Shown here: piece after piece, positions 2,270-18,664 of the stretch
Layout of the letters: each line of letters begins with the position of its first letter
How positions within the stretch are numbered: the stretch's first letter is position 1
Origin: Bacteroidota bacterium
GTDB lineage: Bacteria > Bacteroidota > Bacteroidia > Bacteroidales > CAIXZF01
Assembly: GCA_022709385.1 (NCBI GenBank)
Contig: JAKLIX010000008.1
Coordinates: 90,654-154,653, forward strand
DNA length: 64,000 nucleotides
Direction of reading: 5' to 3'
Made by a program: the position numbers and the translations under genes
Notes under the pieces: model-generated
The model's input: only the letters and a program-made list of their open reading frames with translations
Told to the model about the DNA's origin: nothing
Database searches by the model: none

Positions 2270-3562
2270 ATGTTATCAGAGTTCACAGTAGGTAACTTCT
2301 TGTCCTTCAAGGAGAAGAAAACGCTAAGCCTTGCAGCTACCAGCATCAAAGAACATAAGGATACGAATCTTATCCCAACGGAAAGACTGGACCTTTTAAA
2401 AGGCGCTGTCGTCTACGGTGCGAATGCTAGTGGAAAGTCTAACCTTATCCGGGCAATGTCCACCATGAGGCGACTTGTCCTTAAGTCAGTCGAGCTCTCC
2501 TCAACCTCAGAACTTAAGGTCACTCCCTTCTTACTGAACACAGTCCATGCCGATGAACCTTCCTTCTTCGAGGTGGTATTTTTCCTTGGCCAGGTCAGGT
2601 ACCGTTACGGGTTTGAAGTGACCAATACCCTGGTCCATTCTGAATGGCTGTTTGAATCAAGAAAAAACACTGAAAAACAGCTGTTTATCCGTGAAAAGGA
2701 TGGGATCCAGATTTGGAAGGGTTTTCCGGAAGGACAGGGACTTGAGGAGAAAACACGTGAGAACGCCTTGTTCCTTTCTGTGGTTGACCAGTTTAACGGA
2801 GCCCTGGCAAGAAGAATCATCCAATGGTTCACCAATTTTATTGCCGTCTCTGGACTTAGCCATGAACAATATAAGCTGGTCACGTTTAAAATGCTCGAGG
2901 ACCCGGAGACCAAGCCCCTGCTTCAGGATTTTTTCAACAACCTGGATCTGGGCTTCGATCAAATCGAAGTGACAAAGGAGCTGTTTAATCCGGATCAGCT
3001 GCCGAAGGAAATGCCGGAGGAGCTCATTAAGCAATTGGGCACTGACTTGGTGGGGAAAACCATGCTTAATTTCAGGACATCCCATACACGGTACGACGAA
3101 AATAACAGCCCCACCGGTACAGTTACTTTCGATATGCGTTCCCAGGAATCTGCGGGATCTAATAAAATTTTCAACATTTCAGGCCCTGTCTTCGACACCA
3201 TAAAAAATGGAGGGGTTTTGATGATCGATGAGCTGGATTCAAGCCTTCACCCCTTACTAACACTGGCAATCACCCGTCTTTTTAACTCAAAAGAACACAA
3301 TCCTAAAAATGCGCAATTGATTTTTGCCACCCATGACACGAATCTGCTCCGGCTTGGAAGGTTCCGGCGGGACCAGATTTATTTTGTCGAGAAGAACAAC
3401 TACGGCGCTTCTGATTTATATTCACTGGTTGAATATAAGGAAGAATCCAAAACGGTCAGAAAGGACCGCTCTTTTGAAAAGGACTACATCCAGGGGAGAT
3501 ATGGCGCCATCCCGTTTATCGGCAACATGGATAAGATTACTTCGAGATGGCTGGAAAAGTAA
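2270..3562 (+). CDS. AAA_21/ABC-type ATPase (AbiLi-like)
   Basis: Walker A 'GANASGKSNL', Walker B 'VLMIDELDSSLHP', and H-loop-like 'IFATHDTNLL'. The 3' end overlaps the downstream RloB gene by 16 nt. Confidence 0.85.
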   Translation: MLSEFTVGNFLSFKEKKTLSLAATSIKEHKDTNLIPTERLDLLKGAVVYGANASGKSNLIRAMSTMRRLVLKSVELSSTSELKVTPFLLNTVHADEPSFFEVVFFLGQVRYRYGFEVTNTLVHSEWLFESRKNTEKQLFIREKDGIQIWKGFPEGQGLEEKTRENALFLSVVDQFNGALARRIIQWFTNFIAVSGLSHEQYKLVTFKMLEDPETKPLLQDFFNNLDLGFDQIEVTKELFNPDQLPKEMPEELIKQLGTDLVGKTMLNFRTSHTRYDENNSPTGTVTFDMRSQESAGSNKIFNISGPVFDTIKNGGVLMIDELDSSLHPLLTLAITRLFNSKEHNPKNAQLIFATHDTNLLRLGRFRRDQIYFVEKNNYGASDLYSLVEYKEESKTVRKDRSFEKDYIQGRYGAIPFIGNMDKITSRWLEK

Positions 3563-4248
3563 AAATTGACAACGCTGTATTGAAACGGCATCAAGCCAGG
3601 CAGACAGAAAGGAAACTTGATGTCCGGGCAAAAAGGACCTACTATGTCATTGTTTGTGAAGGTGAAAAGACCGAGCCGAATTACTTTGAAGGCCTGAAAA
3701 AAGCGCTGCCGCCCGGGGTATTACAGACCTGCCAGATCGACATCCACGGCATTGGTGATAATACCCTTTCACTTGTCAGGAAAGCAAAAAAAATAAAAAA
3801 GTCTATAGAAGAGGATTCCGGCAGAGTGGTTGACAAATTATGGGTGGTGTTCGACAGGGACAGCTTTACCCCGGAATCCTTCAATAACGCCATCCTTAGC
3901 TGTCAGCATTCACGACCGAAGATCCATTGTGCCTGGTCAAACGAAGCTTTTGAACTTTGGTATTTGCTTCATTTCCATTTCTTTAACACAGCGATCAGCC
4001 GGGGTGACTATAAAAGCCTTATCGAAAAAGCCTTGCGGCCACATTTAGGCAAAGCCTACCGTTACCGTAAAAACAGCGAGGAAATGTATTCAATCCTGGA
4101 GAAATATGGCAATCAGGAGCAGGCTATTCAATGGGCCGGGAACCTGGTCAATCAACACGCCGGGAATAAGAATTTTGCGACACATAACCCCTGTACCATG
4201 ATTTATCAATTGGTTGAGGAACTCATCGTAATGCAAAAAACCAAGTAA
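3547..4248 (+). CDS. RloB-family (Toprim/OLD-like) protein (AbiLii-like)
   Basis: The hallmark RloB N-terminal motif 'YYVIVCEGEKTEPNYF' is at nt 3655-3687, with 'VVFDRD' further downstream. The gene is translationally coupled to the upstream ATPase. Confidence 0.85.
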   Translation: MAGKVKIDNAVLKRHQARQTERKLDVRAKRTYYVIVCEGEKTEPNYFEGLKKALPPGVLQTCQIDIHGIGDNTLSLVRKAKKIKKSIEEDSGRVVDKLWVVFDRDSFTPESFNNAILSCQHSRPKIHCAWSNEAFELWYLLHFHFFNTAISRGDYKSLIEKALRPHLGKAYRYRKNSEEMYSILEKYGNQEQAIQWAGNLVNQHAGNKNFATHNPCTMIYQLVEELIVMQKTK

Positions 4249-4395: not shown

Positions 4396-7300
4396 ATGAA
4401 GTCCCTCTCCCAACAACTCACAGTCCGCCCGTCTGTTTTTGACAAAAACCGAAGAGATGTGGTGCTCGACATTACCAACCTTATTGCTGGTCAGGTCGAT
4501 CCCGATGACTTTTTTAAAGAAAACTACATCACCAGGGGAATGCAGGATTTATACAGGGCAGTCTTTAAAAGACTTGAAGGCAACTCTGATGACGGATTGT
4601 TCCGACTCACTCAATCCATGGGAGGAGGCAAGACGCATAACATGATTGCCATAGGACTGCTGGCAAAATTTCCTGAATACCGTGAAAAGGTTATGGGTCA
4701 TATTTACAACACCACGCTGAAAGGCGGGGTCAATGTGATAGGATTCAGTGGAAGGGAAAAACCCGAGCTGGGAATCTGGGGCTACCTGGCAGAACAGCTG
4801 GGTAAAAAGGACATTTTTAAGAAGCGCTATGCTCCCCTGGAAGCTCCCGGACAGGAGGAATGGGAAGCCCTGCTTGCCAATGAGAAGCTGGTAATCATAC
4901 TGGATGAGTTGCCTCCTTACCTGGAAGGGGCCTATGGTAAAACTATCGGGGATTCAAACCTGGCCACAATTACCACCCAAGCCCTGAGTAACCTCTTTGT
5001 GGCCCTGGGGAAAAAGGAACTCAAGCAAGTAGTTGTCATTATCTCCGACCTGACTGCCAATTGGACACAGGGAAGTGAACTTATCGGTCAGATCGTTAAA
5101 AATCTGGAGGATGAAACCCACCGCGGGGCCAAACCCTTTACTCCTGTGGAGCAAACCGGTGATGAGATTTACAATATACTCAGGACCAGGATTTTTGACA
5201 ATCAGCCCAGCACTGAAGAGATTGAACCCATCGCCCTGGCATACGCTGCAATGATCAAGGAAGCCAAACAGATGGACATTACCACTGAAACTCCCGAACG
5301 CTTTGCCCAGGCAGTCAAAGACTCCTACCCTTTTCATCCTGCCATTAAAGACCTTTTCGCCCGCTTCAAGGAAAATCCGGGATTCCAGCAAACCCGTGGC
5401 CTGATCCGCTTAATGAGGACGATCGTATCCAGGATGTTTGATCCGGAAGAGGGCTGGGCAGGCAACAGTTACCTTATTGCTCCGTATGATCTTGATTTCA
5501 ATGATTCAGACACCCTGACTGAAATCGCCGGCATTAATTCTAAACTTACCAATGCCATCTCGCATGATATTTATGGAAACCCTTCTGCCGTAGCACAGAT
5601 ACTCGATGAGAAGTTTGATAACTCCCTGGCTTCTGATGCGGCCAAACTCATCCTTGTGTCTTCTCTGTCCGTGGTACAAAACGCCGTCAGGGGGCTTCAT
5701 GACTGGGAAATAATCCGCAACCTCTGCAAGCCGGGTGTTGAAATTTCGAAAGTAGCAGCAGAAATTCTGCCCGAACTCAAGAATACTTCCTGGTACCTTC
5801 ATATTGACAATACAGGGAAATTCCTTTACAAGGATGTCCAGAACGTCGTTGCCAAACTCAATGATTATATCAAAGGGTACAACCAGGAAAGCATCAAACT
5901 GGAAATCAAAGCCAAGCTACAAAGGATCTTCGAGCCAAAACTGAAGGATTGTTATCAAAAGGTATATGCATTACCAGCTCTCGACGAAATCGAGCCGGAA
6001 CAGTTTAAAACATCGCTCATTATCTATCAACCTTTTGCAGGCTCTGAGCTGCACCCCGACCTTGAAACTTTATTCAAAGATACCCAATGGCAGAACAGGG
6101 TTCTGTTTTTGACCGGCGATGCCCATTCTATGGCTTCTATTTTTGAGAATGCGGCAGGTCTGAAAGCCATTGATGCCATCCTGGGAGAATTTCGTTCAGA
6201 GAAGGTTCAACCCAATGATCCTCAGTTTATTGAAGCGGAAAAACTCAAAGAAACCTTCCTCTTCAAATTCAACAGTGCTGTCCGGGAAACTTTCGTCAAG
6301 ATATTCTACCCGACGAAAAACGGTCTCATGCCGGCAAATTTCCAGATGCAATTCAAGGATAATAATTTCGACGGCGAGGATCAGATCAAAAAGACACTGG
6401 TTGACAAAAGGAAATTCACAGAAGATATAAACTCTGATACCTTCCAGAAATATGTGGAAGGTAAATTATTCCACCCGCAGAAGACCCTGCCATGGAATGA
6501 GATCAAGAAAAAAGCAGCCACCAATACCGACTGGATCTGGCATAAGATGAATGCCCTGGACCAGTTGAAAGATGAATTAATCCTGAAAGATCTCTGGAGG
6601 GCCAACGGTGACTGGATTGAGATCGGTCCCTTTGAACCACCTAAAACCAGTGTGACTTACAGGATCATGAGCAGAAATGATGATACCGGCGAGGTTGCCC
6701 TGAAAATCATCCCCTCTCATGGTGACCGGGTACATTTTGAGATTGGTGACAAAGTTTCCACTGCCTCTCAGCAACTTGACCTGGCCCTACCCTTTAAGAC
6801 TTCCGAACTTAAAGCCACCTTCCTGTGTACCGACAGCAAAAATGTACACGAAACGGGTGACCCGCTGACGTTTAACAATACCATTACCCTTAAACACCGG
6901 TTTTTCCAGGATGATGACCGTCTGATGCTGGAATTGAAAGCAGCTCCGAAAGCTGACATCAGGTTCACGACCAACGGAAGTGACCCTTCCAATTCCGGAA
7001 AGCACTATGAAGGACCGGTGGCCATCCCCACTGGCGTCAGTTTCATTATTGCACTGGCGGAAAAGGATGGTATCAAGTCGGAGAAGAAGGAATACAAAGT
7101 CCCGGCAAGGGACCAGGGACCCTATGAGCCGATTAAAACAAAACCGGCCATCCTGAAAAGAAAGATCACCCGGCAGAGTACTTCAGAAACTTACGAATGG
7201 CTGAAGATGGTTAGCAAACACCGGATCATTCTGTCCGGGGTGACCTTTTCGATAAACGGGAAAAAATGGGCCAGCATTGATGTTTACCCTGAAATGCAGT

Positions 7301-7470
7301 TCGATCATGACAAGTTGAACACAGTACTGAGTTTCCTGAGGAATGAAATCCTCAACGAAGGAGAAATTGAACTATCGGCCCAGCAACTGCATTTTGAAAC
7401 AGGCCAGCTGTTATTGGATTATATCAGGGATACAAGAGACCAGTTAAAACCGAATGAAGTCGAACAATAA
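4396..7470 (+). CDS. DUF499-type P-loop ATPase (1024 aa)
   Basis: P-loop 'SMGGGKTHN' at nt 4621-4635 and Walker B-like 'VIILDELPPY'. The N-terminal layout and large size are typical of DUF499 proteins. It is the first gene of an overlapping gene chain. Confidence 0.8.
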   Translation: MKSLSQQLTVRPSVFDKNRRDVVLDITNLIAGQVDPDDFFKENYITRGMQDLYRAVFKRLEGNSDDGLFRLTQSMGGGKTHNMIAIGLLAKFPEYREKVMGHIYNTTLKGGVNVIGFSGREKPELGIWGYLAEQLGKKDIFKKRYAPLEAPGQEEWEALLANEKLVIILDELPPYLEGAYGKTIGDSNLATITTQALSNLFVALGKKELKQVVVIISDLTANWTQGSELIGQIVKNLEDETHRGAKPFTPVEQTGDEIYNILRTRIFDNQPSTEEIEPIALAYAAMIKEAKQMDITTETPERFAQAVKDSYPFHPAIKDLFARFKENPGFQQTRGLIRLMRTIVSRMFDPEEGWAGNSYLIAPYDLDFNDSDTLTEIAGINSKLTNAISHDIYGNPSAVAQILDEKFDNSLASDAAKLILVSSLSVVQNAVRGLHDWEIIRNLCKPGVEISKVAAEILPELKNTSWYLHIDNTGKFLYKDVQNVVAKLNDYIKGYNQESIKLEIKAKLQRIFEPKLKDCYQKVYALPALDEIEPEQFKTSLIIYQPFAGSELHPDLETLFKDTQWQNRVLFLTGDAHSMASIFENAAGLKAIDAILGEFRSEKVQPNDPQFIEAEKLKETFLFKFNSAVRETFVKIFYPTKNGLMPANFQMQFKDNNFDGEDQIKKTLVDKRKFTEDINSDTFQKYVEGKLFHPQKTLPWNEIKKKAATNTDWIWHKMNALDQLKDELILKDLWRANGDWIEIGPFEPPKTSVTYRIMSRNDDTGEVALKIIPSHGDRVHFEIGDKVSTASQQLDLALPFKTSELKATFLCTDSKNVHETGDPLTFNNTITLKHRFFQDDDRLMLELKAAPKADIRFTTNGSDPSNSGKHYEGPVAIPTGVSFIIALAEKDGIKSEKKEYKVPARDQGPYEPIKTKPAILKRKITRQSTSETYEWLKMVSKHRIILSGVTFSINGKKWASIDVYPEMQFDHDKLNTVLSFLRNEILNEGEIELSAQQLHFETGQLLLDYIRDTRDQLKPNEVEQ

Positions 7471-8086
7471 AAAAGGCCCCGTTCTTGACTTTGGTTTTAA
7501 CCCAAAGGACACGGAACATCATTTCCTGGTTTACATCAAACCCGGAGACAAAGAAGTGTATTTCTTTGAACAATTCTCCTTCACCGAGGATCAGGACTTT
7601 AGTGTACTCGCCTATACCATCAGCGGTCAGGGATCCACCTGCAAGTGCCTTCTGAATCATTCAAGATGGGATTTGATAAAAGCGGATGTAAGGGCCGAGT
7701 TCAACCGCAGGTTGAAAGAAATGGAGATCCCTTCATCCCAGTGGAAATCGAAGTACAACTATCTTCACCGCCTGCTGGGGAAAGAACTCCTGGTGCTGGC
7801 CTGGGCCATAGAGGAGGCAGATCCGGCCACCGTACCCCTGGCCATCCAAAACTGGCTTGGTTTAAAACCGGAAGAGCGCTGGTGGCTGTATACCATTACC
7901 AATGCTGCCACCGGGCATGCCATTAACGGCCGGGGCAAGGGATGGCGCAAGGCTTTACGCTTTGCCCTGACTGAAAACCCCGTCACACACGAGAAAATTG
8001 ACATGAACATCTACAAAGAATCCAATATTCTCAGCCTTTTTAAGGAAGACCCGGATTCTGAAACCCTCGGAAGCAAACATGAATAA
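7454..8086 (+). CDS. small protein in the DUF3780 position of DUF499/DUF1156 loci (DUF3780-like)
   Basis: The ORF is 210 aa. It overlaps the upstream gene by 17 nt and the downstream gene by 8 nt. The family call rests mainly on size and position, so the coding call is firmer than the family call. Confidence 0.6.
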   Translation: MKSNNKKGPVLDFGFNPKDTEHHFLVYIKPGDKEVYFFEQFSFTEDQDFSVLAYTISGQGSTCKCLLNHSRWDLIKADVRAEFNRRLKEMEIPSSQWKSKYNYLHRLLGKELLVLAWAIEEADPATVPLAIQNWLGLKPEERWWLYTITNAATGHAINGRGKGWRKALRFALTENPVTHEKIDMNIYKESNILSLFKEDPDSETLGSKHE

Positions 8087-10964
8087 ATCCTTCATAGAAA
8101 CCCAGTTCCCGGTTTCCAAAATATCAAAAGAGAGTTATAAAGAAAGAAAGGCCGGAGCCAGCCAGACGCTCACAGGACTGGGAAAATGGTGGGGACGAAA
8201 ACCCCTGGTGCTTGTACGTGCAACTATTCTGGGCCTCTTGATGCCATCTTCCGAAGACCCCAAAAAGGACAGGGAAATCTTCCTCAAACTGCTTACCATG
8301 GATGAAGAGGGTTTGCTCAGTAGAAAAGACAAAACCCTCTCTGCAAAGGAGTTGTTCCTTCATTCCCCGCAAAGCCTCAGAATCAGATATTTTGATCCTT
8401 CCTCCACAGTAGAAAAGGTAATCTGGCGAGATAACATCGGCAAAGAGGATACGGATGAACTTCAGGATAAGGTGTTTAAGGCTTTGAGCTATGACGACAA
8501 ACTGAAGTATTGCCTGAGGCCGGAGCATCTGGAAGGTCCTTCATCAGATACATGGGAAGAAATCAATGCCCATCTGAATACCTCAGCCCACTCCCTGCAA
8601 GAACTGGTCAACGAGCTGGGAATCCGGATTTTTGGTCACACACCAAGAATCGGGGATGCCTTCTGCGGCGGGGGATCCATACCTTTTGAAGCAGCCCGCC
8701 TGGGTTGTGACGTTTACGCCAGTGACCTGAACCCGGCTGCTGCACTGCTTACCTGGGCTTCCCTGAATATCATCGGCGGCGGCGAAAAAGTCCAGAAAGA
8801 AGTGCGTGAAGCTCAGGAAGAAGCCTTCCGGCTTGCCGACGGACAGATCACCGAATTGGGCATCGAACACAATGACAAGGGCTGGAGAGCTGATGCCTAC
8901 CTCTATTGCATAGAAGCAAGAAGCCCGAACAGCGGCTATTGGGTGCCACTTGCCCCGAGTTGGATCATATCAGAAAAATACAAGGTTTGTGCAGTTTTAC
9001 GGCCCGACCATGCCAATAAACGCTACCATATTGATATAGTTACTGATGCCGACAGTCAAACGTTCGCGAAGGCCAAACAGGGAACCATCCGGAATGGCGA
9101 ACTCATATGCCCGGAAGATCCCACAAAATCTTATGACATTTCCACCATCCGGGGTGACCGGAGAATGGATGGGGAAACCCGTTACGGTTTGAGACAATGG
9201 GAAAACGAAGATATAGTCCCTCGGCCCGAAGATGTCTTCCAGGAAAGGCTTTATTGCGTAAGGTACATAGGTCCTGATGGAAATCGCTATTATGTGGCAC
9301 CCGGCCCACGGGAATGGCAAAATGAAGAAAAGGTCCTTAATCTCATCCAAGAGAGATTTGAGGAATGGCAAGAGAAAGGATATATTCCCAGCTCGCTGAT
9401 TCCAGAAGGTGATAAAACAGAAGAACCAAAAAGAACCCGTGGTTGGACCCATTGGCATCATCTCTTTAATCCGAGGCAGTTGATTTACCATGGGCTTTTC
9501 ATGCAAAGCCTGATGGGAAAAGGCAACAATGAAAGACATCAAAAAGTCGGTGGCTGCATTTCTATTGGGGCTGCAATTGACAACCAATCAAGATTATGCG
9601 GATGGAATCCACATTTTTCAAAAGGCCCAGGTACCACAAGGAATGTATTTTTCAATCAGGCTTTGAACACACAGTATTATTATGGCACAAGAAGTTTTGG
9701 AGGAGTCCTCGATTTTTACCTCTCGGATCTACCGTATGAAAAAAAACTCACCCCTGAAATAAAAGTAGTGACATCTGATGCCCGGGAGAATCAGGACACT
9801 AATGAATTTTGGATCACTGACCCGCCCTATGCTGATGCAATCAATTATCATGAGCTTGGTGATTTCTTTTTAAGCTGGTATGAAAAGCATATAGGGAATA
9901 CTTTCCCAGAATGGTATTCGGAATCAAAAGCAGCATTAGCTGTCAAGGGGACGGGAAGTTCCTTTAACCAGAGTATGGTAGATTGCTACCAGAATTTCAC
10001 CCGGCATATGCCTGACAATGGTGCCCAGGTGGTCATGTTCACCCACCAGGACAGTCGGGTCTGGGCCGACCTGGCATTAATTTTATGGGCCTCGGGCCTC
10101 CAGGTCACAGCCGCCTGGACTATACAAACCGAGACCGATTCTGTAGGGATAAAATCAGGTAATTATGTGCAGGGTACCGTAATTATGGTCCTCAGGAAAC
10201 AGCAGACCAGCAATATTGCTTTTTTAAGCGACATCCAGGCGGATGTGGAATATGAGGTCAAGCAGGAACTCCGGAGCATGCTGGCCCTGGATGACCGGGA
10301 TGATCCCAATTTCGGGGATACGGATTACCAGCTTGCAGCCTATGTGGCTGCCTTGCGGGTAATTACGAGGTATAAAAAGATAGAAGACATTGATGTTCAC
10401 TACGAATTGAGCAGGGAAAGGCAGGCCGGGGAGGTCAGTGAGATCCAGGAGATCATCAAAAGTGCCGTGAAGGTTGCCTGTGAATACCTGGTACCCGGTG
10501 GCTTTGACGCTTCCGTGTGGAGACAACTCAGCGGCGAAGAACGCTTTTATCTCAAGGGCCTTGAAATCCAAAGCCATGGGGAATACCGGAATGGTGTATT
10601 CCAGGAACTTGCCCGTGGGTTCGGCCTGAGGGATTACAAACTGTTTCTGCAAACAGGTTCGGCCAATGAAACCCGGCTGGCCTCAGCTGTAGAGTTTAAC
10701 AATAAGGAGCTTCAAACCGAGGGATTCGGCAGTACGCTGGTCAGGCATGTTTTATTCGCCGTCAGGGAAACGCACAAGAACCAGTCTGCACGTTCCGGCC
10801 GGCAGTGGCTGTACAACGAGTTGCCCGATTATTGGGGGAGCCGCCTGCGGATCATCCATATTCTGGCCTACCTGCAAAGACTGGGCATCTATCTGGACAA
10901 CTGGCAGGATGATGTTTATGCAGCCCGGCTGTTGCAGGGCTATCTTGAAAATGATACGATATGA
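8079..10964 (+). CDS. DUF1156-domain DNA amino-methyltransferase (N6-adenine or N4-cytosine class)
   Basis: N-terminal DUF1156 signature 'ETQFPVSKISKESYKER...LTGLGKWWGRKPLVLVRA'. SAM motif I 'DAFCGGGSIPFEAARLG' starts at nt 8655. Catalytic motif IV 'DPPY' is at nt 9819-9830. Confidence 0.88.
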   Translation: MNKSFIETQFPVSKISKESYKERKAGASQTLTGLGKWWGRKPLVLVRATILGLLMPSSEDPKKDREIFLKLLTMDEEGLLSRKDKTLSAKELFLHSPQSLRIRYFDPSSTVEKVIWRDNIGKEDTDELQDKVFKALSYDDKLKYCLRPEHLEGPSSDTWEEINAHLNTSAHSLQELVNELGIRIFGHTPRIGDAFCGGGSIPFEAARLGCDVYASDLNPAAALLTWASLNIIGGGEKVQKEVREAQEEAFRLADGQITELGIEHNDKGWRADAYLYCIEARSPNSGYWVPLAPSWIISEKYKVCAVLRPDHANKRYHIDIVTDADSQTFAKAKQGTIRNGELICPEDPTKSYDISTIRGDRRMDGETRYGLRQWENEDIVPRPEDVFQERLYCVRYIGPDGNRYYVAPGPREWQNEEKVLNLIQERFEEWQEKGYIPSSLIPEGDKTEEPKRTRGWTHWHHLFNPRQLIYHGLFMQSLMGKGNNERHQKVGGCISIGAAIDNQSRLCGWNPHFSKGPGTTRNVFFNQALNTQYYYGTRSFGGVLDFYLSDLPYEKKLTPEIKVVTSDARENQDTNEFWITDPPYADAINYHELGDFFLSWYEKHIGNTFPEWYSESKAALAVKGTGSSFNQSMVDCYQNFTRHMPDNGAQVVMFTHQDSRVWADLALILWASGLQVTAAWTIQTETDSVGIKSGNYVQGTVIMVLRKQQTSNIAFLSDIQADVEYEVKQELRSMLALDDRDDPNFGDTDYQLAAYVAALRVITRYKKIEDIDVHYELSRERQAGEVSEIQEIIKSAVKVACEYLVPGGFDASVWRQLSGEERFYLKGLEIQSHGEYRNGVFQELARGFGLRDYKLFLQTGSANETRLASAVEFNNKELQTEGFGSTLVRHVLFAVRETHKNQSARSGRQWLYNELPDYWGSRLRIIHILAYLQRLGIYLDNWQDDVYAARLLQGYLENDTI

Positions 10965-12649
10965 CAGAAGCTCAGATTAGAACATATCTTTCTCAAGGCG
11001 AGGGACTCAGAATTGAATTCAAAAAATCAAGGCTGGCCTTACCTGGCAACTTGTTTGAGAGTGTTTGCTCATTTCTGAACCATAGTGGAGGGACAATCTT
11101 GCTTGGCGTTGATAATGATGGCAGCTTTGAAGGTGTAGATAGAACTACGCTTGACAAACTGATGGACAACGTTGCAACCCTATCCAATAATCCTGAATTT
11201 CTTGACCCGCCGTTCCTCCTGTTCCCGATCAAACATGAAATTGACGGGGAGAATATTATTGTTATTCAAGTCCCGGAAAGCTCACAAGTACACAAGTTTA
11301 AAGGTATAGTTTTTGACAGAAGCAGGGACGGGGATTTTAAAGTGATTAAGCCTGAAAGAATCGCTGAAATTGCAAACCGGAAAAGAAACCTGTTTACTGA
11401 AGGCAGAATATTGCCTTTCCTTGAATATAAACATTTCAGGGAAGACCTGTTTGAAAAAGCCAGGGCACTGATTCGTTCAAGAAAACCAGATCATCCATGG
11501 CTTTTGTTTGATAACCCGACATTACTCGAAAAAGCGGGCCTTTATAAAACTGACCTTCAGACCGGCGAAGTGGGCTATACCCTTGCTGCTTTGTTATTGT
11601 TTGGAAGAAATGAATTCATTGAAAGCACACTTCCGGCGCTAAAAATTGATGCACTTGTCAGAATAGAAAATACTGATCGCTATGACGACCGGGATGAAAT
11701 CAGGCATACTAACCTGATAGAAGCATATGAAAGGTTAATGGCGTTTGTCGGCAAACACCTCCCGGATAAGTTCCACCTGGAAAACGGGCAAAATGTAAGT
11801 TTAAGGGACATTATCTTCAGGGAAGTTATTGCAAATATCCTGGTGCACAGGGAATATACCCATGCGATGCCAACCACATTTGTCATTTATCAGGATAGGG
11901 TTGAAACTCTCAATCCGAATAATCCACATTTCCATGGGTTAATTCTACCCGAAAAAGTGGTTCCCTTCCCTAAGAATCCTGCCATATCAAAATTCTTTAT
12001 TCAATTGGGCAGGGTTGAAGAATTAGGATCAGGGGTTATGAATGTCAGTAAGTACCTACCCCATTACACCCAGGGTGCATTACCACAGTTTATTGAAAAT
12101 GATGTATTTACGACGATTATACCGCTTAAGGTGCACACACTTGGGGCGTTAGCAAAGGAATTTTTGAGGGCCATTCTGCCCGGGCACATACAAGCAGAAG
12201 AGGTGCTTACATTGCTTACAAGTCTCCAGATCACATCAGAAATTGCAAAAGAAGCCCACGATCCTGGCCTGTTGTTTTATCGATTGGGAGTATGCTGGAT
12301 GGAAAAAGGGCTTAAGCTGCTTAGAGATAAAGATCATGATATCAGCAAACTAACAAAAGAAGAAGAAATAAAGGGACTAAGCTGGGAGGAAAAAGGGACT
12401 AAGCTGATCGAAAAAGGACTGTTAAACATGGTTCAGATTCTGATACTATGTTTAAGGGAAAAAAGTTTACAGGAACTGGCTGATATCACGGGGTATTCAA
12501 ACAGATCGAAATATAAATCCTCCTATATTGACCCGTTAGTTAACTATAGGTTAATAGAATTAACCATTCCGGACAAACCAAAGTCCCCTGCCCAAAAATA
12601 TAAAACAACCGTTGCAGGAAGGTATTTCCTTGGAGGTGGACAAATTTAA
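10961..12649 (+). CDS. Schlafen/AlbA_2 (divergent AAA_4) + HATPase_c_4-like + C-terminal wHTH protein
   Basis: N-terminal 'YLSQGEGLRIEFKKS...ESVCSFLNHSGGTILLGVDNDG' is typical of AlbA_2. Mid-protein 'REVIANILVHREY' is the HATPase-like part. C-terminal 'PDKPKSPAQKYKTTVAGRYFL' is a typical wHTH tail. The start overlaps the methylase stop (ATGA). Confidence 0.8.
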   Translation: MTEAQIRTYLSQGEGLRIEFKKSRLALPGNLFESVCSFLNHSGGTILLGVDNDGSFEGVDRTTLDKLMDNVATLSNNPEFLDPPFLLFPIKHEIDGENIIVIQVPESSQVHKFKGIVFDRSRDGDFKVIKPERIAEIANRKRNLFTEGRILPFLEYKHFREDLFEKARALIRSRKPDHPWLLFDNPTLLEKAGLYKTDLQTGEVGYTLAALLLFGRNEFIESTLPALKIDALVRIENTDRYDDRDEIRHTNLIEAYERLMAFVGKHLPDKFHLENGQNVSLRDIIFREVIANILVHREYTHAMPTTFVIYQDRVETLNPNNPHFHGLILPEKVVPFPKNPAISKFFIQLGRVEELGSGVMNVSKYLPHYTQGALPQFIENDVFTTIIPLKVHTLGALAKEFLRAILPGHIQAEEVLTLLTSLQITSEIAKEAHDPGLLFYRLGVCWMEKGLKLLRDKDHDISKLTKEEEIKGLSWEEKGTKLIEKGLLNMVQILILCLREKSLQELADITGYSNRSKYKSSYIDPLVNYRLIELTIPDKPKSPAQKYKTTVAGRYFLGGGQI

Positions 12650-12660
12650 ATGACTCATTA

Positions 12661-15378
12661 ATGATCAACCGATATTCTTCAAGGACACTGCCGCTGGATG
12701 AGAGCTTATTAAATGCTAGGCTTCTCAATGCGAAATCTTATGACCGGGTGGCTGGGTACTTCAGCTCTTCTATCCTTGAAATTGCCGGTGAATCCATCAA
12801 CTCCATTCAAGGGACCGTCAGGATCATCTGTAATTCCGAGATGGAGGAAGCAGATGTGGTCACGGCACGGGCTGCGGAAATGTCGATGAAACGGGAATGG
12901 TGCAACAGTATAGACACCAGGCTGAATTACACCGGAACCGACCGGTTTTCAAAACTATACTCCTTACTTACCTCCAATAAAATTGAAGTGAGGGTTCTGC
13001 CCTCCACTACTTTCGGGCTGATTCACGGGAAAATAGGCGTTGTCACAGGATCTGACGGAAAAAAGATGGCTTTTATCGGCAGCACCAATGAAACTTATGC
13101 TGCCTGGCGGATGAACTACGAGGTTGTTTGGGAAGACGATTCCCCGGAGGCAGTGGAATGGGCACAATCAGAATTTGATGCGTTGTGGCAGCATCCTCAT
13201 GTTACCCGATTATCTGATTTTATTATACAGGACATCGGCAGGATCGCAAAAAGAAAGATCATAAACCTGGATTCCTGGCAGGCCATTAAGCAACCGGCCA
13301 GTGTCGTAGTGGAGAGCCCTGTTTACAGATCCGAATACGGTTTATGGGCACACCAGAAGTATTTTGTAAAAAAGGCTTTTGACGATCATCTTTCAGGAAA
13401 GGGAGCCCGTTACTTATTAGCCGACCAGGTTGGACTTGGAAAGACCGTTCAACTTGCCTTATCGGCTCAACTCATGGCCCTGACCGGAAGCAAGCCGGTA
13501 CTGATTATTGTACCCCGCACCCTGCTATTTCAATGGCAGGATGAAATGAATAATCTCCTTGCCATGCCATCAGCTGTTTGGGACGGCAAACAATGGAATG
13601 ATGAGAACGGGGTAAAATATCCTTCAATCGGACCGGAATCCATCAGCAAATGTCCGCGCCGCGTTGGTATTGTAAGCCAGGGATTGATTACCCGGAAAAG
13701 CGAAGCTGCCTCCGCCCTTTTGAATATTGAATATGAATGTATTATCCTGGATGAATGTCACCGGGCCAGGAGAAAGAACCTAAAGGCAGATGCAGAGAAT
13801 GAACCTGTCAATCCGAACAACCTGTTGGCATTCTTATTCAAAATTGCTTCGCAAACGAAGAACCTTCTCATAGCCACGGCAACGCCTGTACAGTTATTTC
13901 CCATTGAGGCGTATGATTTGCTCGATGCCCTCAGCCGAAGCAATGACCACGTACTTGGTAACGTATTTTCCCTCTGGAAGAAAGACAAAAAACTTATCCT
14001 CGATCTGGTAACGGAGAAACAGGATCCTCCAATGAGCTTCAGTTCAATGTGGGAATGGGTAAGGAATCCTTTTCCGGCTACATCAGAAAATGACCAGTTA
14101 TTTGGCTCAATCCGTCGTAGATTGAATATGTCAGATAAAGACGCTGTCGTTGAAGGAAACAGGGAAATCGAAATGAAACCGGCCGATAAAAACAAGATTG
14201 AACGGCTGGGTAAGGAATTCTTCACTCTGTACAACCCCTTTATCAGGCATATTGTGAGAAGGACAAGGGAATTTCTGGAAAATGAAAACGATCCTTCGAC
14301 CGGTGAACCCTACCTGAAAAAGGTTGAAGTTACCCTCTTTGGTGAGGATAGCAAAGACGCTATCCTCTTACCAGGCTACCTGAGAGATGCCTACGAATCA
14401 GCGGAAGAGTTTTGCAGACTTCTTGGAGAACGAATGAAATCGGCGGGATTTATGAAGACCATGCTTCTCAGGCGGATGGGAAGTTCCCTCGAAGCCGGCA
14501 AAAATACAACCATGAAGATCCTTGGGAACTTGTCAGAGGAAATCTTCCAGGAAGAAGATGATAATGAATCAAGTGAAGAGGAAAATATGGTGCTGGAACA
14601 GGAGGTTTCTTCCCTCACGGCATCCCTGACCAATAAGGAAAAAGAAGTCCTTCAATTATTGCTCAGGCAATTAGAAAAACACCAGGATAAAGATCCTAAA
14701 TACTTCAAGATCAAAGAATTCTTGTTCGACCGGGGCTGGATGGAGTCGGGTTGTATCCTGTTTTCTCAATATTTCGACACCTGCTGGTATATGGCAAACC
14801 AGCTTTCATCTGAACTGAAAGACATTTCAATCGGCGTGTATGCAGGGGGGAATAAATCAGGACTGCTGATTAAAGGCATATTTACGCCCTACACCCGGGA
14901 AGACTTGAAAAAGATGGTCCAGGCAGGCAAGATCAGACTCCTGTTCGGAACAGATGCTGCAAGTGAAGGTTTAAACTTACAGAAACTCGGAACATTGATC
15001 AATATTGACCTTCCCTGGAACCCAACCCGTCTGGAACAACGCAAGGGCCGGATTCAACGCATCGGACAAATCAGGGATAAAGTGCTTATTTACAACATGC
15101 GCTATAAAGACTCCATTGAAGACAAGGTGCATGGGATACTATCGAGCCGGTTAAAGAAGATCTACGATATGTTCGGGCAATTACCAGATGTGCTGGAGGA
15201 TGTTTGGATTGAGGCAGCACAGGGGCATATCGAGAAGGCCAACGAGATCATTGATGCCATCCCCAACCAGCATCCGTTTGAGATGAAATACAACAAAGTC
15301 GAGCAAATCGACTGGGAGAGCTGCTCGGAGGTTTTGAATGAGGTGGAGAGAAGAGAAATACTAAATAAATCCTGGTAA
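12661..15378 (+). CDS. PLD-family (HKD) nuclease domain fused to an SNF2-type helicase
   Basis: N-terminal 'GLIHGKIGVV...FIGSTNET' (H-x-K ... G-S-x-N) at nt 13024-13095. SNF2 motif I 'DQVGLGKT' at nt 13432-13446. Motif II 'LDECH' at nt 13750-13761. Motif VI 'EQRKGRIQRIGQ'. Confidence 0.88.
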   Translation: MINRYSSRTLPLDESLLNARLLNAKSYDRVAGYFSSSILEIAGESINSIQGTVRIICNSEMEEADVVTARAAEMSMKREWCNSIDTRLNYTGTDRFSKLYSLLTSNKIEVRVLPSTTFGLIHGKIGVVTGSDGKKMAFIGSTNETYAAWRMNYEVVWEDDSPEAVEWAQSEFDALWQHPHVTRLSDFIIQDIGRIAKRKIINLDSWQAIKQPASVVVESPVYRSEYGLWAHQKYFVKKAFDDHLSGKGARYLLADQVGLGKTVQLALSAQLMALTGSKPVLIIVPRTLLFQWQDEMNNLLAMPSAVWDGKQWNDENGVKYPSIGPESISKCPRRVGIVSQGLITRKSEAASALLNIEYECIILDECHRARRKNLKADAENEPVNPNNLLAFLFKIASQTKNLLIATATPVQLFPIEAYDLLDALSRSNDHVLGNVFSLWKKDKKLILDLVTEKQDPPMSFSSMWEWVRNPFPATSENDQLFGSIRRRLNMSDKDAVVEGNREIEMKPADKNKIERLGKEFFTLYNPFIRHIVRRTREFLENENDPSTGEPYLKKVEVTLFGEDSKDAILLPGYLRDAYESAEEFCRLLGERMKSAGFMKTMLLRRMGSSLEAGKNTTMKILGNLSEEIFQEEDDNESSEEENMVLEQEVSSLTASLTNKEKEVLQLLLRQLEKHQDKDPKYFKIKEFLFDRGWMESGCILFSQYFDTCWYMANQLSSELKDISIGVYAGGNKSGLLIKGIFTPYTREDLKKMVQAGKIRLLFGTDAASEGLNLQKLGTLINIDLPWNPTRLEQRKGRIQRIGQIRDKVLIYNMRYKDSIEDKVHGILSSRLKKIYDMFGQLPDVLEDVWIEAAQGHIEKANEIIDAIPNQHPFEMKYNKVEQIDWESCSEVLNEVERREILNKSW

Positions 15379-15418: not shown

Positions 15419-16366
15419 ATGAGCAAGATAATATTTATGAGAATTGCCTGGATGAAATTCTATAAGGGGAATACCAAGCAAGATAAACCTATAGGTGCAG
15501 GAGCATATGTTCAAGAAAATGAAGATGGCGGTGAAGTTTGCAATTTCCTTGATATAAATGGCTTGTGCTATGGATATGCAAGAATGCCCCCAGGCAGGAA
15601 TATTGATATTAAGCGAGAAGGAGCCAGCCCATTTGACACATCAGTAAATGATGTAGATGTAATCTTTATTGCGACAAATCCGAAAGATGGTGGTCAGTAT
15701 ATTGTTGGATTTTACAATAATGCTATTGTTTATAAGAAACCTCAAACAATAAAAAACAAGAAACGTGGAAACCACAATAACTATGTTTGCTTATGTCCTT
15801 CAAAATCAGCATTTCTTGTATCTGAAAAAGATAGGGTATATGATATCACCGGTGCTGGGCAAGCTAATATCTGGCATGCCAGTGAGTACTTAACTAACAC
15901 TGAGTTACGAAGATTGACAACTTATCTTCTCAAAGTTAAAGGATCATTGCAAACGGCACGTAAATCTTCAGGTAGCTTTAATTCGAATATAAAAGCTAAC
16001 GCTGAAGCTGAGATGAAGGCGATGGAGTATGTAAAGCAATATTTCGAAAGCAATGAATTTAAGGTAATAGATATTCACAAGGATAATTTAGGTTGGGATT
16101 TTACTGCTATCAAAAATACAGTTGAGTACCAACTCGAGGTCAAAGGATTGTCTGGGAACTTCACCTCAATTGATCTGACACCCAATGAATTTGATAAGAT
16201 GGAAAACAAAAAATCAACCTATCTAGTTTGTATTGTTTCAAATCTTGGAACCGGGGAGGCACCAAAATTGGATTTAATTTCCTATTATGGTAGTACTCTC
16301 AAATCGGACAGTGGCATCGAAATGAAGATTACTAAAATTATTGGTGCAAGAATTTCAAGAAAATAA
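15419..16366 (+). CDS. two-domain protein: unknown N-terminal domain + DUF3883-type (restriction-endonuclease-fold) C-terminal domain
   Basis: C-terminal 'EAEMKAMEYVKQYF...GWDFTAI...YQLEVKGLSG...IDLTPNEF...YLVCIV' fits the DUF3883/NOV_C nuclease-fold pattern. I do not recognise the first ~190 aa. The gene is very AT-rich. Confidence 0.65.
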   Translation: MSKIIFMRIAWMKFYKGNTKQDKPIGAGAYVQENEDGGEVCNFLDINGLCYGYARMPPGRNIDIKREGASPFDTSVNDVDVIFIATNPKDGGQYIVGFYNNAIVYKKPQTIKNKKRGNHNNYVCLCPSKSAFLVSEKDRVYDITGAGQANIWHASEYLTNTELRRLTTYLLKVKGSLQTARKSSGSFNSNIKANAEAEMKAMEYVKQYFESNEFKVIDIHKDNLGWDFTAIKNTVEYQLEVKGLSGNFTSIDLTPNEFDKMENKKSTYLVCIVSNLGTGEAPKLDLISYYGSTLKSDSGIEMKITKIIGARISRK

Positions 16367-16389
16367 TCATATCAATTTCAAGGACTTTT

Positions 16390-18351
16390 ATGAAAATTTC
16401 AACTGTACTTGACCATATCGATAATGGGCACATGGCCCTCCCGGAATTTCAACGAGGATATGTTTGGAACCGGGAACAGGTCAGAGGCCTCTTCGACTCA
16501 CTTTATAGACGACATCCAATCGGTGGCTTACTTGTGTGGGCAACTGAATCACAAAGTGCTGAACACAGAGGGGATGGAGAGCTGGCAGCTGGTATTGTAA
16601 AATTACTGCTCGATGGTCAACAGCGGATGACTACATTATATGGGGTTATAAGGGGAAAAGCACCAAAGTTCTTTGATGGAAATGCAGCAACTTTCACAGG
16701 ACTTTTCTTTCATCTTGAAAATGAAATATTTGAATTTTATCAACCTTTGAAGATGAAGGATGATAAGTTGTGGATAGATGTCACGCAATTGATGAAAAAA
16801 GGAGATGAAGGCCTGGGCGAAATAATTGCAAGATTGTCCCAACAAGCGGAATTTGTTGCAAAAACAGGTGAGCATGTTGGAAAGTTAGCTAAGTTACTTG
16901 GTATAAGGGAAGTAGATCTTCATGTTGAAGAAGTGACCGGATCGGACAAAACCATTGATATAGTGGTAGAAATTTTTAATAGAGTTAACAGCGGTGGAAC
17001 AAAATTATCGAAAGGAGATCTGGCTCTTGCCAAGATTTGTGCAGAGTGGCCGGATGCCCGGGAGAAAATGAAAGAGAAATTAAAAGTTTGGGAGAACATT
17101 GGTTATCACTTTAGTCTGGATTGGCTATTGCGTTCTGTTAATACAGTTATCACAGGTGAAGCTAAGTTCCTGTACCTGCATGATAAAAATCCAGCAGAGG
17201 TGCAAAATGGATTAGAAAGAGCAGGTAGGCACCTGGATTCATGCCTGAATATGATCAGTGGAAGACTCGGTTTGGATCACGACCAGGTATTGTTCAGCCG
17301 GTATTCTTTGCCAGTCATGGTGCGGTATCTTGACAAACGAAATGGCCTGCTTGATGCAAAAGAAAGAGATAAACTGCTATTCTGGTTTGTTCAGGCAGGA
17401 ATGTGGGGGCGATTTTCGGGTTCGACTGAATCAATAATCGACAAGGATCTGGAAGTTCTAGAATATGGTGATAACATGCTGGATAATTTATTGGAGAATT
17501 TGCGGATGTGGCACTCCGGATTAAGAATTGAACCGTATCATTTCACCGGTTGGAGCTTGGGTGCGAGGTTTTATCCGGTTTTGTATATGCTCACCAGGAT
17601 GGGAGAAGCAAGGGACTGGGGGAATGGACTTCCGCTAAAAGCACATCTTCACGGTAAAATGAGCAAACTGGAAGTTCATCACATTTTTCCTAAAGCAAAG
17701 CTTTACAAACATAACAATACTGGTTACAAACGACCCGAGGTAAACGCTTTAGCAAACTATTGTTTCCTGACTAAAGAGACCAATCTACTAATTAGTGATA
17801 GATTTCCTGAAGAATATTTCCCGGAAATTGAGCAGAACCACCCAGGAGCTCTTGCCTCTCAATGGATCCCACAAGACCCAAATCTTTGGAAAACAGATAA
17901 CTACCTTGAATTCCTTGAAGCACGGAAAATCCTGATTGCAAATGAAGCCAATAGACAAATGGAAGATCTTCTTCATGGTGAATTACATTGGATGGATACA
18001 TCCGCCCCAGCAATTTCATTAACTGAGACCATTGGTGGTGGAATAACGACTGAGAAAGAAGAAGAAGAACTAAATGAAGTCAATAATTGGATCGCTGCAT
18101 TAGGATTGCCTCGCGGCACTTTACTTTTCGAATATTATGATCCTATGGGAAATCAATTGAAGGCAGTTTTTGATCTGGCCTGGCCTTCAGGATTACAGGA
18201 AGAACTTAGTCAACCAGTTGCAATACTACTGAATGAAAACGATGAACTTGTAAAATTTGCCCTCGAATCCGGTTATAAGTGCTTCACTAACATTTCAGAT
18301 TTCAAGCGATATATCAACAGTGACATTCTTGTCATGGAAATTGAATTGTAA
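16390..18351 (+). CDS. GmrSD-family protein (DUF262 N-terminal + DUF1524 HNH-like C-terminal), type IV restriction-like
   Basis: DUF262 motifs 'LPEFQRGYVW' (nt 16441-16467) and 'DGQQR' (nt 16612-16626). DUF1524 His-Me motif 'LEVHHIFPK...NALANYCFLTKETN' starts near nt 17671. About 150 extra C-terminal residues follow. Confidence 0.85.
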   Translation: MKISTVLDHIDNGHMALPEFQRGYVWNREQVRGLFDSLYRRHPIGGLLVWATESQSAEHRGDGELAAGIVKLLLDGQQRMTTLYGVIRGKAPKFFDGNAATFTGLFFHLENEIFEFYQPLKMKDDKLWIDVTQLMKKGDEGLGEIIARLSQQAEFVAKTGEHVGKLAKLLGIREVDLHVEEVTGSDKTIDIVVEIFNRVNSGGTKLSKGDLALAKICAEWPDAREKMKEKLKVWENIGYHFSLDWLLRSVNTVITGEAKFLYLHDKNPAEVQNGLERAGRHLDSCLNMISGRLGLDHDQVLFSRYSLPVMVRYLDKRNGLLDAKERDKLLFWFVQAGMWGRFSGSTESIIDKDLEVLEYGDNMLDNLLENLRMWHSGLRIEPYHFTGWSLGARFYPVLYMLTRMGEARDWGNGLPLKAHLHGKMSKLEVHHIFPKAKLYKHNNTGYKRPEVNALANYCFLTKETNLLISDRFPEEYFPEIEQNHPGALASQWIPQDPNLWKTDNYLEFLEARKILIANEANRQMEDLLHGELHWMDTSAPAISLTETIGGGITTEKEEEELNEVNNWIAALGLPRGTLLFEYYDPMGNQLKAVFDLAWPSGLQEELSQPVAILLNENDELVKFALESGYKCFTNISDFKRYINSDILVMEIEL

Positions 18352-18627: not shown

Positions 18628-18664
18628 ATAGAATATAACTCACACCCTCACTCTCACCCGCTTG

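Follow-up and report, generated by a model that had tools for sequence, protein, structure and literature searches.

Organization of the Locus and Its Genomic Setting

The window, the whole 64,000-nucleotide stretch of DNA under analysis, derives from a Bacteroidales MAG. Between positions 4396 and 15378, it carries five intact open reading frames on the + strand, and their junctions of −17, −8, −4 and +11 nt are exactly those given in the original prediction. All five are full length when compared with the family models and free of frameshifts and internal stop codons. The first gene, mtsA (4396–7470), encodes a DUF499 AAA+ ATPase of the ORC/Cdc6 type with 1024 amino acids (aa). It is followed by mtsB (7454–8086), which encodes a stand-alone DUF3780 protein of 210 aa, and mtsC (8079–10964), the product of which is a predicted N6-adenine DNA methyltransferase of 961 aa with an N-terminal DUF1156. 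The fourth gene (10961–12649) encodes a pSlfn-HisKinase-like-wHTH protein of the COG2865 type (562 aa). It lies nested ahead of mtsD (12661–15378), the 905-aa product of which joins an N-terminal HKD/PLD nuclease to a Swi2/Snf2-type SF2 ATPase.

Two further + strand genes lie directly upstream of mtsA (2270–4248). AbiLi (2270–3562) is an AAA_21 ABC-type ATPase according to Pfam (PADLOC AbiLi, 6.5e-97), while AbiLii (3547–4248) is an RloB protein (PADLOC AbiLii, 3.4e-27). This pair is a separate defence module of the same island, and homologues with 52–58% identity are found within the mtsC–mtsD slot of two related loci (L002 and L003). Downstream of mtsD, also on the + strand, are a putative nuclease of the NOV_C/DUF3883 type (15419–16366; Pfam NOV_C) and a predicted GmrSD-like type IV restriction enzyme (16390–18351; Pfam GmrSD_N). 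The genes of this segment (15419–18351) give PADLOC matches to the HmaA C-terminus, TmtA and HEC-05. As no NOV_C homologue occurs in 80 related loci, the NOV_C gene is taken as a separate island gene.

The GC content is 40–47% up to approximately 18 kb and about 50% past that point. A tRNA-Val(GAC) gene was located by ARAGORN on the − strand at 18664–18739. Its 3′ end points toward the low-GC defence island, and it is therefore a probable integration or boundary site. The island itself was probably acquired horizontally. A scan for promoters and terminators returned counts similar to those of shuffled sequence; the scan was for sigma-70 promoters, from which the promoter type of a Bacteroidales host differs.

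The ATPase MtsA and the DUF3780 Protein MtsB

MtsA is recognized by Pfam DUF499 (4e-26) and by the PADLOC model PDLC02192 “DUF499” (E = 6.7e-197), with residues 1–1024 of the protein aligned to positions 1–1021 of the 1022 in the model. The Walker A motif GGGKT is encoded at 4621–4635 (K79) and the Walker B residues D170-E171 at 4903–4908. Conservation of both motifs is 0.96 among 71 homologues. A single Fn3-like beta-sandwich match (Pfam Fn3_assoc) covers aa 845–895 (6928–7080). The C-terminal part of the protein is hypervariable at aa ~881–1000 (7036–7395), with an identity of only 0.24–0.28 in the same 71 homologues.

The stand-alone mtsB gene directly follows the ATPase gene and overlaps its stop codon by 17 nt. 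Of 70 related loci, 62 likewise have a tight junction here. MtsB matches Pfam DUF3780 (1.4e-47) and PADLOC PDLC02191 (3.3e-43), has 3988 homologues, and shows 45 invariant columns in an alignment of 14 sequences. Sequence searches of the PDB with MtsA, MtsB and MtsC gave no matches.

The Methyltransferase MtsC and the Helicase-Nuclease MtsD

The N-terminal DUF1156 of MtsC (Pfam, 3e-23) spans aa 9–70 (8103–8288), and the protein is matched by PADLOC PDLC02189 “DUF1156_MTase” (2.4e-284). The catalytic motif IV, DPPY, is encoded at 9819–9830 (D581). The motifs cited in the original prediction are all present in the locus, although motif I of MtsC, FCGGGS, lies at 8661–8678; position 8655, which had been given as its start, begins “DAFCGG” and is 6 nt off. 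The motif residues have a conservation of 0.94–0.98, except for F195, the first residue of FCGGGS, at 0.87. In the conservation profile, the segment that varies most is aa ~481–560 (9519–9758), which is probably part of the target-recognition domain (TRD). TRD swap data for an MtsC homologue have been given by Shaw et al. (bioRxiv 10.64898/2026.09.23.753747).

MtsD begins with a PLDc_2 domain (1.4e-13) at aa 23–176 (12727–13188), followed by SNF2-rel_dom (7.5e-11) and Helicase_C (3e-14). The PADLOC model PDLC02193 “PLD_Helicase” (2.8e-234) aligns residues 1–905 of the protein to positions 2–905 of its 905. The nuclease signature HxK...GSxN is present as HGK...GSTN at 13024–13095 (H122 and K124). 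The motor carries a Walker A motif GLGKT at 13432–13446 (K261), DECH at 13750–13761 (aa 364) and motif VI, QRKGRIQR, at 15037–15060 (aa 793). Among 39 homologues, the conservation of H122, K124, GSxN, GLGKT, DExH and motif VI is 0.97–1.0. In the PDB sequence search, MtsD matched RapA and SNF2 remodellers. These were the only proteins recovered, with no match to SauUSI. Structural similarity between MtsD and SauUSI, the type of a group of ATP-dependent PLD-helicase restriction enzymes, has nevertheless been described by Shaw et al., both being dimeric PLD proteins with SF2 motors. Unlike MtsD, SauUSI is autonomous and aimed at modified DNA.

The Nested Schlafen Gene and the mtsC–mtsD Slot

The domain matches identify the product of the nested gene as a predicted prokaryotic Schlafen RNase (pSlfn) that also contains a domain resembling histidine kinases and a wHTH. 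Its start codon overlaps the stop codon of mtsC (ATGA), and mtsD begins 11 nt past its own stop. The N-terminal nuclease matches Pfam SLFN_AlbA_2 (5.7e-15). The Ex4ExK motif (E14, E19 and K21; 11000–11023) is intact and its residues are invariant among 19 homologues, while the family profile matches the nuclease lobes of the SLFN8/14/11/12/5 structures. The HATPase_c_4-like domain at aa 309–386 (11885–12118) reaches 22.8 bits (8.9e-5) and stays below the Pfam gathering score of 26, whereas nearly all of the Pfam families named in the original prediction were recovered, far beyond chance. PF13749 is recorded in many pSlfn homologues, and N292, N339, G356 and G358 are invariant among homologues. 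The wHTH lies at aa 491–550 (12431–12610) and matches Pfam Fic-like_C (3.6e-13). This domain and the Fn3-like domain of MtsA were absent from the original prediction and were recovered by Pfam.

To our knowledge, there have been no functional tests of the HisKinase-HTH class of pSlfns, or of its embedding in MANTIS. With its HisKinase-like and HTH C-terminal module, the window protein fits this class (the HATPase_c_4 match being below the Pfam cut-off), which makes up 19.2% of pSlfns (Nat Microbiol 2026, PMC13056530). The pSlfn defence nucleases of that study likewise combine an N-terminal Schlafen nuclease, an Ex4ExK-type motif and HisKinase-like and HTH domains. The characterised RorSlfn5 performs phage-triggered, Mn-dependent tRNA cleavage (PMC13056530), but its C-terminal sensor is unlike that of the window pSlfn.

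The mtsC–mtsD slot is visible in 46 of the 80 related loci, and all slot counts refer to these 46. In 28 of them, the gap between the two genes is at least 600 nt and is filled by diverse defence genes, the contents including AbiL, GmrSD, type IIG-like methylases, Fic, PIN and YoeB. A pSlfn gene occupies the slot in only four (L009, L033, L069 and L080), and these proteins share a mere 21–25% identity with that of the window. The closest homologues (49–50% identity) instead adjoin a MADS-like (MAD7) locus, an integrase and CRISPR-cas. As so few of the slots carry a pSlfn gene and its nearest homologues lie in unrelated defence contexts, pSlfn is counted as a passenger, one of the varying contents of the cargo slot that separates mtsC from mtsD. 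This leaves a core of four genes, rather than the five-gene cassette originally proposed. The expected co-occurrence of the gene set is borne out for A-B-C-D, which is conserved in the 80 loci as far as the retrieved sequence includes these genes, but not for pSlfn.

Assignment to the MANTIS System

The gene order and the model matches make it very likely that 4396–15378 is an intact MANTIS operon, mtsA-mtsB-mtsC-mtsD, with an independent single-gene pSlfn system placed between its last two genes. Each core protein is matched over its full length by a dedicated PADLOC model (E values from 1e-43 to 1e-284), and the DUF499, DUF1156_MTase and PLD_Helicase models are covered almost from one end to the other. 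The 80 related loci come from many phyla. In every case in which the retrieved sequence includes the genes, they keep the A-B-C-D order on a single strand, and the identities of their proteins to those of the window are mostly 41–67%.

This type of system has carried several names. Gao_RL was first described by Gao et al. 2020, as cited in Shaw et al. (bioRxiv 10.64898/2026.09.23.753747), where Gao_RL/Gao_29 was renamed MANTIS in September 2026. It is also the “Type-2 BREX-related system” (BR Type-2), reported from 1120 taxa (Rakesh and Krishnan, NAR 2026). The locus fits the definition of BR Type-2 exactly, with no difference in kind. The hallmarks are a stand-alone DUF3780 protein, a helicase with an N-terminal HKD nuclease and a methyltransferase with an N-terminal DUF1156. 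The DUF3780 protein is a marker of BR Type-2/MANTIS and co-activates methylation in the characterised system. A further, probable hallmark lies in MtsA, where one Fn3-like match is followed by the hypervariable C-terminus; in Type-2 systems, FnIII-like domains and then a hypervariable RRM-like MtsA C-terminus are present in 53% of cases (Rakesh and Krishnan, NAR 2026).

The MANTIS of Pseudomonas aeruginosa AZPAE15024 is built from these four proteins, likewise in the order A-B-C-D. The catalytic residues mutated in the MANTIS study all have conserved counterparts in the window at nearly the same positions. Matched by the published residue numbers, MtsA K80/E174 correspond to K79/E171 of the window, MtsC D621/Y624 to D581/Y584 and MtsD H122/K260 to H122/K261. 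The two loci differ in the host, a Bacteroidales MAG in the case of the window, and in the insertion of pSlfn. The identity between the window proteins and proteobacterial homologues (Pseudomonadales MAG sequences) is only ~43–56%. In addition, some MANTIS operons include the Arc/CopG repressor MtsR, whereas the 147 nt that precede mtsA contain no ORF for it.

The locus thus belongs to a kind of anti-phage system, based on methylation, that already has a name and was recently characterised, and it is an intact but routine example. The original prediction could not map the architecture to a named system and held its mechanism and recognition motif to be unknown, a view overturned by its identity with Gao_RL/Gao_29, BR Type-2 and MANTIS. 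It had also allowed that assignment of the complete set to a characterised system would make the set known and not novel. Given the PADLOC models and the published MANTIS work, this is the case.

Alternative Readings

Related parts occur in other systems, but it is barely conceivable that the locus is a Type-1 BR/Hma system, or a BREX or DISARM variant, rather than MANTIS. Its proteins give weaker PADLOC matches to HmaA/B/C, DrmD, BrxHI/HII and PglXI, and the NOV_C/DUF3883 gene just downstream of mtsD resembles the C-terminal domain of HmaA. The Hma/Type-1 BR systems (Payne et al. 2021; Liu et al. 2024, PMC11232893) also contain homologues of the DUF499 ATPase, of the methylase with DUF1156 and of the Snf2 helicase, and share the R-M-like logic. 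However, on the Hma models, the scores of the window proteins fall far behind those on their own, the DUF499, DUF1156_MTase and PLD_Helicase models being ahead of the Hma, Drm and Brx models by more than 500 bits. Hma lacks DUF3780, and its helicase starts with a TUDOR domain and carries an active PD-(D/E)XK nuclease at the C-terminus. In the window, DUF3780 stands alone, the nuclease of MtsD is the N-terminal HKD/PLD domain and no C-terminal REase domain was detected in this protein, and Hma was rejected. BREX (types 1–6), which combines the PglZ phosphatase with BrxC and PglX, was rejected with no Pfam match to PglZ or BrxL (Lon protease) in the large ORFs scanned from 1 to 24 kb. For DISARM, characterised by the DrmA helicase and DrmB (DUF1998) and optionally DrmC, the same ORFs gave no Pfam match to DrmA or DrmB, and only the generic SNF2 region of MtsD matches the DrmD/DrmA models. 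A decaying or silent remnant of a defence island, devoid of current activity, is highly improbable. The sequence is MAG-derived, the island is of low GC and probably horizontally acquired, and there is no obvious regulator gene; yet all five uninterrupted ORFs retain every catalytic motif.

The role of the Schlafen/HATPase/wHTH protein leaves more to be weighed. It is unlikely to be an obligatory fifth part, acting as a sensor, a regulator or a guard set off by the inhibition of MANTIS. Such a role would suit the close packing of its gene against mtsC and mtsD. It would also suit the placing of all five pSlfn insertions (the window and the four related loci) in the C-D slot, and none in the B-C slot, despite their low identity, a preference of roughly p~0.02 under equal slot use with relatedness ignored. 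Close linkage of Schlafen-HisK-wHTH genes to BREX/BR loci has, moreover, been counted in no fewer than 1017 taxa, and the embedded Schlafen-minimal HisK-wHTH genes have been termed “backup effectors” (Rakesh and Krishnan, NAR 2026). On the other hand, 42 of the 46 slots lack the gene, including those of the closest relatives (L001–L003), and the same slot is occupied elsewhere by unrelated defence genes. Its nearest homologues stand alone in other defence islands, and the four-gene Pseudomonas system is enough for both methylation and restriction. The reading of pSlfn as a passenger is thus retained, while the ATGA overlap, the 11-nt spacing and the recurrent slot leave room for some coupling with MANTIS.

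One form of such coupling has a precedent in PrrC, an anticodon nuclease nested in the EcoprrI type I R-M locus, where it is held latent by the EcoprrI enzyme and so guards a restriction system. Both PrrC and, by prediction, pSlfn are tRNA-targeting nucleases nested in an R-M operon, although the nuclease families are unrelated. By analogy, pSlfn might be co-translated with MtsC and MtsD, silenced by intact MANTIS and freed when a phage anti-restriction function disables it. More broadly, the mtsB–mtsC and mtsC–mtsD junctions would serve as dedicated “cargo slots” for the recruitment of second-layer effectors. This combined proposal is a doubtful one.

Proposed Mechanism

Work on MANTIS has reported that the methyltransferase MtsC relies on MtsA and MtsB for its loading and activation and hemimethylates an asymmetric 6-bp site, e.g., CAACAC or CAACAG, in a manner dependent on all three proteins (Shaw et al., bioRxiv 10.64898/2026.09.23.753747). 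In the Pseudomonas system, restriction of phage and plasmid requires all four proteins and both ATPases, with the helicase-nuclease MtsD as the candidate effector, and the four genes suffice for methylation and restriction (Shaw et al., bioRxiv 10.64898/2026.09.23.753747). This agrees with the restriction-like logic of the original prediction, in which self DNA is marked by the DUF1156 methylase, and unmodified DNA is the target of the PLD-SNF2 protein as candidate effector. The placing of the DUF499 ATPase on the restriction side only does not hold, as in MANTIS it is also needed for methyltransferase loading and methylation turnover.

We infer the mechanism at this locus by homology to the characterised Pseudomonas system. 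MtsC would recognize a short asymmetric site, onto which it would be loaded by ATP-bound MtsA, with catalysis stimulated by MtsB. Methylation at adenine N6 would be placed on one strand (hemimethylation), and turnover would be made possible when MtsA hydrolyses its ATP. On unmodified foreign DNA, the site-bound MtsABC complex would recruit or activate the dimeric PLD-SF2 motor MtsD, with restriction most efficient on sites in inverted pairs. For the pSlfn protein, the most probable role is that of an Mn-dependent tRNase with a trigger of its own, working by abortive infection. Its gene is predicted to be co-transcribed with the operon, the protein adding a second layer of defence rather than serving as an obligatory subunit.

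Significance and Annotation

The locus carries little weight as a discovery, since the architecture, including the embedded Schlafen, is catalogued in more than 1000 taxa and the mechanism has been worked out in Pseudomonas. Its value is as an intact and compact Bacteroidales example of MANTIS. It could be used to ask whether the rules of MANTIS, i.e., MtsA/MtsB-dependent hemimethylation and the preference for inverted sites, hold outside of the Proteobacteria, and whether operon-nested effectors such as pSlfn, a predicted tRNase, act independently or as guards of restriction.

The present annotation lists “DUF” proteins and a “putative DNA-binding domain-containing protein”; the five genes should read mtsA, mtsB, mtsC, pSlfn and mtsD. 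Close homologues of the pSlfn gene are mislabelled as “RecG helicase”.

Identity of the cassette

The five plus-strand genes at 4396–15378 include an ordinary member of MANTIS, the MtsA–D system, which as of 2026 is already named, catalogued and mechanistically characterized. The order is mtsA (protein 1; 4396–7470), mtsB (protein 2; 7454–8086), mtsC (protein 3; 8079–10964), a prokaryotic Schlafen gene, pSlfn (protein 4; 10961–12649), and mtsD (protein 5; 12661–15378). Consecutive genes overlap by 17, 8 and 4 nt, with an 11-nt gap before mtsD; an ORF check returned exactly the coordinates and junctions of the original prediction. PADLOC-DB holds dedicated models for these components (PDLC02189-02193), and the matches are to DUF499 for MtsA (E=6.7e-197), DUF3780 for MtsB (E=3.3e-43), DUF1156_MTase for MtsC (E=2.4e-284) and PLD_Helicase for MtsD (E=2.8e-234). 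Those of proteins 1, 3 and 5 span almost the whole length, and their secondary matches to HmaA/B/C, DrmD, BrxH and PglXI fall far below the dedicated models.

Rakesh & Krishnan described, from 1120 taxa, the Type-2 BREX-related system, in which a DUF499 ATPase and a stand-alone DUF3780 protein are combined with a DUF1156 N6-methyltransferase and an HKD-Swi2/Snf2 helicase. In a preprint of 24 Sept 2026, Shaw et al. (bioRxiv 10.64898/2026.09.23.753747) equate it with the former Gao_RL / Gao_29, for which they note that phage restriction was shown in earlier work, and introduce the name MANTIS with components MtsA–D. The recognition of a methylation-linked defense operon was correct, whereas the accompanying view that no mechanism, motif or DUF499 role was known has been overtaken.

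Read from the sequence itself, the P-loop GGGKT of MtsA is at 4621–4635 (lysine K79), the DPPY of MtsC at 9819–9830 (aspartate D581) and the HGK...GSTN of MtsD at 13024–13095 (H122, K124), with GLGKT (K261) and DECH in the helicase part of MtsD. All of these motifs had been predicted; the only slip concerns FCGGGS of mtsC, which is present but begins at 8661 rather than 8655. Pfam recovers the expected DUF499, DUF3780, DUF1156, SLFN_AlbA_2, PLDc_2, SNF2-rel_dom and Helicase_C, while HATPase_c_4, also expected, is found with a score under the Pfam gathering score. Two further domains come up: protein 4 has a Fic-like_C winged helix, and protein 1 an Fn3-like domain towards its C-terminus. In the system of Rakesh & Krishnan, FnIII-like domains of the DUF499 ATPase often precede a hypervariable RRM.

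Conservation among related loci

The DUF3780 protein has 3988 homologues, including a 100%-identical entry from a Bacteroidales MAG. A genome scan seeded with an alignment of this family gave at least 594 loci, and 80 of these (L001–L080) were retained. In the 80, tblastn finds MtsA-MtsB-MtsC-MtsD, in this order and on one strand, in every case where they fall inside the fetched stretch, mostly at 41–67% identity to the window proteins. The hosts are Bacteroidota, Proteobacteria, Cyanobacteria, Chloroflexota, Firmicutes, Planctomycetota, Verrucomicrobiota and one archaeal bin. In this last locus (L004, CAZHNA010000120.1), binned as a Methanosarcinales archaeon, MtsA–D are 51–61% identical to the Bacteroidales proteins and nearer to them than those of most bacterial loci; either a transfer between domains or misbinning accounts for this.

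In alignments of 39–71 homologues, the catalytic residues of the window are the conserved ones. The K80A/E174A (MtsA), D621A/Y624A (MtsC) and H122A/K260A (MtsD) substitutions of the MANTIS study correspond to K79/E171, D581/Y584 and H122/K261 of the window. MtsD has a threonine in place of the "D" of its HKD motif, as is typical of the family (77%). Conservation is lowest at MtsA residues 881–1000 and MtsC residues 481–560, in keeping with the hypervariable sensor and the target-recognition region known from the literature.

Predicted mechanism

Going by its homologues, the cassette would most likely work like Pseudomonas MANTIS (Shaw et al., bioRxiv 10.64898/2026.09.23.753747). There, the target of MtsC is an asymmetric 6-bp site, CAACAC (in a relative, CAACAG), which it hemimethylates, and MtsC is the source of specificity for both methylation and restriction. 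For methylation, MtsA loads MtsC onto DNA and MtsB stimulates it, both being required, and ATP hydrolysis by MtsA is needed for turnover. Restriction requires all four Mts proteins and both ATPase activities, and is strongest where unmodified sites form inverted pairs. MtsD, whose cleavage is putative, resembles the PLD-helicase SauUSI. The general prediction in the original note, that the methylase marks self and that the PLD-SNF2 protein is a candidate effector against unmarked DNA, is therefore right.

Insertion slots and the nested Schlafen gene

Insertions into MANTIS operons recur at two slots, the mtsB-mtsC (B-C) and mtsC-mtsD (C-D) junctions. Among the related loci, 600 nt or more separate mtsB from mtsC in 31 of 64 and mtsC from mtsD in 28 of 46, while A-B is tight. 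The cargo is a mix of defense and toxin ORFs and whole modules: type IIG-like N6-methylases, AAA_21/OLD-type ATPases (AbiL and HEC-01 among them), NsnABC, GmrSD, M78 peptidase/HTH pairs, Fic, PIN and YoeB.

Protein 4 is a prokaryotic Schlafen protein. Its N-terminal EGLRIEFK is the Ex4ExK motif described as catalytic in Schlafen RNases (PMC13056530), with E14, E19 and K21 invariant in 19 homologues, and the family profile matches the nuclease lobes of SLFN5, 8, 11, 12 and 14. The Slfn-HisKinase-like-HTH architecture accounts for 19.2% of pSlfns (PMC13056530).

Four of the related loci carry pSlfn genes. Like that of the window, all of these are in the C-D slot, but they are only 21–25% identical to it. 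The nearest homologues (49–50% identity) instead adjoin a MADS-like (MAD7) locus, an integrase and a type I CRISPR-cas locus. Rakesh & Krishnan report Schlafen-minimal HisK-wHTH genes embedded in BREX and BREX-related (BR) loci of at least 1017 taxa and view them as backup suicide effectors; Schlafen insertion in such an operon is an already published theme. Comparison of the loci places pSlfn outside the conserved core. Given the variable slot contents, the homologues in other contexts and the published embedding, the cassette is therefore read as a four-gene MANTIS with a nested, probably autonomous pSlfn gene. A guard role for pSlfn, functionally coupled to MANTIS in the manner of PrrC/EcoprrI, is unlikely.

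Another nested gene was seen in about 10 loci (L016, L019, L021, L022, L026, L030, L035, L036, L046), for the most part gammaproteobacterial MAGs, with some from other phyla. It encodes an extra ~1000-aa type IIG-like N6-methylase (N6_Mtase/Eco57I/MmeI_Mtase), in most cases followed by a ~210–300-aa partner ORF. This enzyme would be a second methylase or restriction enzyme within the operon, and the arrangement looks like a clade-specific composite.

The surrounding defense island

GC around the cassette is low (40–47%, against ~50% beyond 18 kb), in a stretch that ends at a minus-strand tRNA-Val(GAC) (18664–18739). Directly upstream of mtsA is a plus-strand AbiLi/AbiLii (AAA_21 + RloB) pair (2270–4248). 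Homologues of AbiLi occupy the C-D slot of the Saprospiraceae loci L002 (16756–18722) and L003 (8861–10198) at 57–58% identity, with an AbiLii homologue at 52% in that of L002, and GmrSD is found in the C-D slot of L053; the same accessory modules therefore move into and out of the operon.

On the other side, 40 nt past mtsD, starts a stand-alone NOV_C/DUF3883-type protein (15419–16366, plus strand). Its matches are to TmtA and to the C-terminal region of HmaA, which is the helicase of Hma, the Type-1 BR sister system; none of the 80 related loci yielded a homologue. Since a GmrSD_N / HEC-05-like putative type IV (modification-dependent) restriction enzyme (16390–18351, plus strand) also lies at the tRNA-proximal end, the island holds at least four defense modules in ~18 kb. 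At the left edge, an SF2 helicase gene (Helicase_C; 1–1476) is present by its 3′ part only: its frame is open from base 1 and its start lies outside the window, so the island reaches beyond that edge.

Adjoining the tRNA-Val, a 119-bp unit occurs in 2.3 tandem copies with 93% matches (18716–18993). The unit consists of the 5′ half of the tRNA and its upstream sequence; the extra copies carry a short GC hairpin (tcccgcacgtgcggga) in place of the anticodon-arm region, and CACTCT hexamer runs lie inside the units. The array may represent remnants of repeated integration or excision at tRNA-Val, or tRNA-like pseudo-copies.
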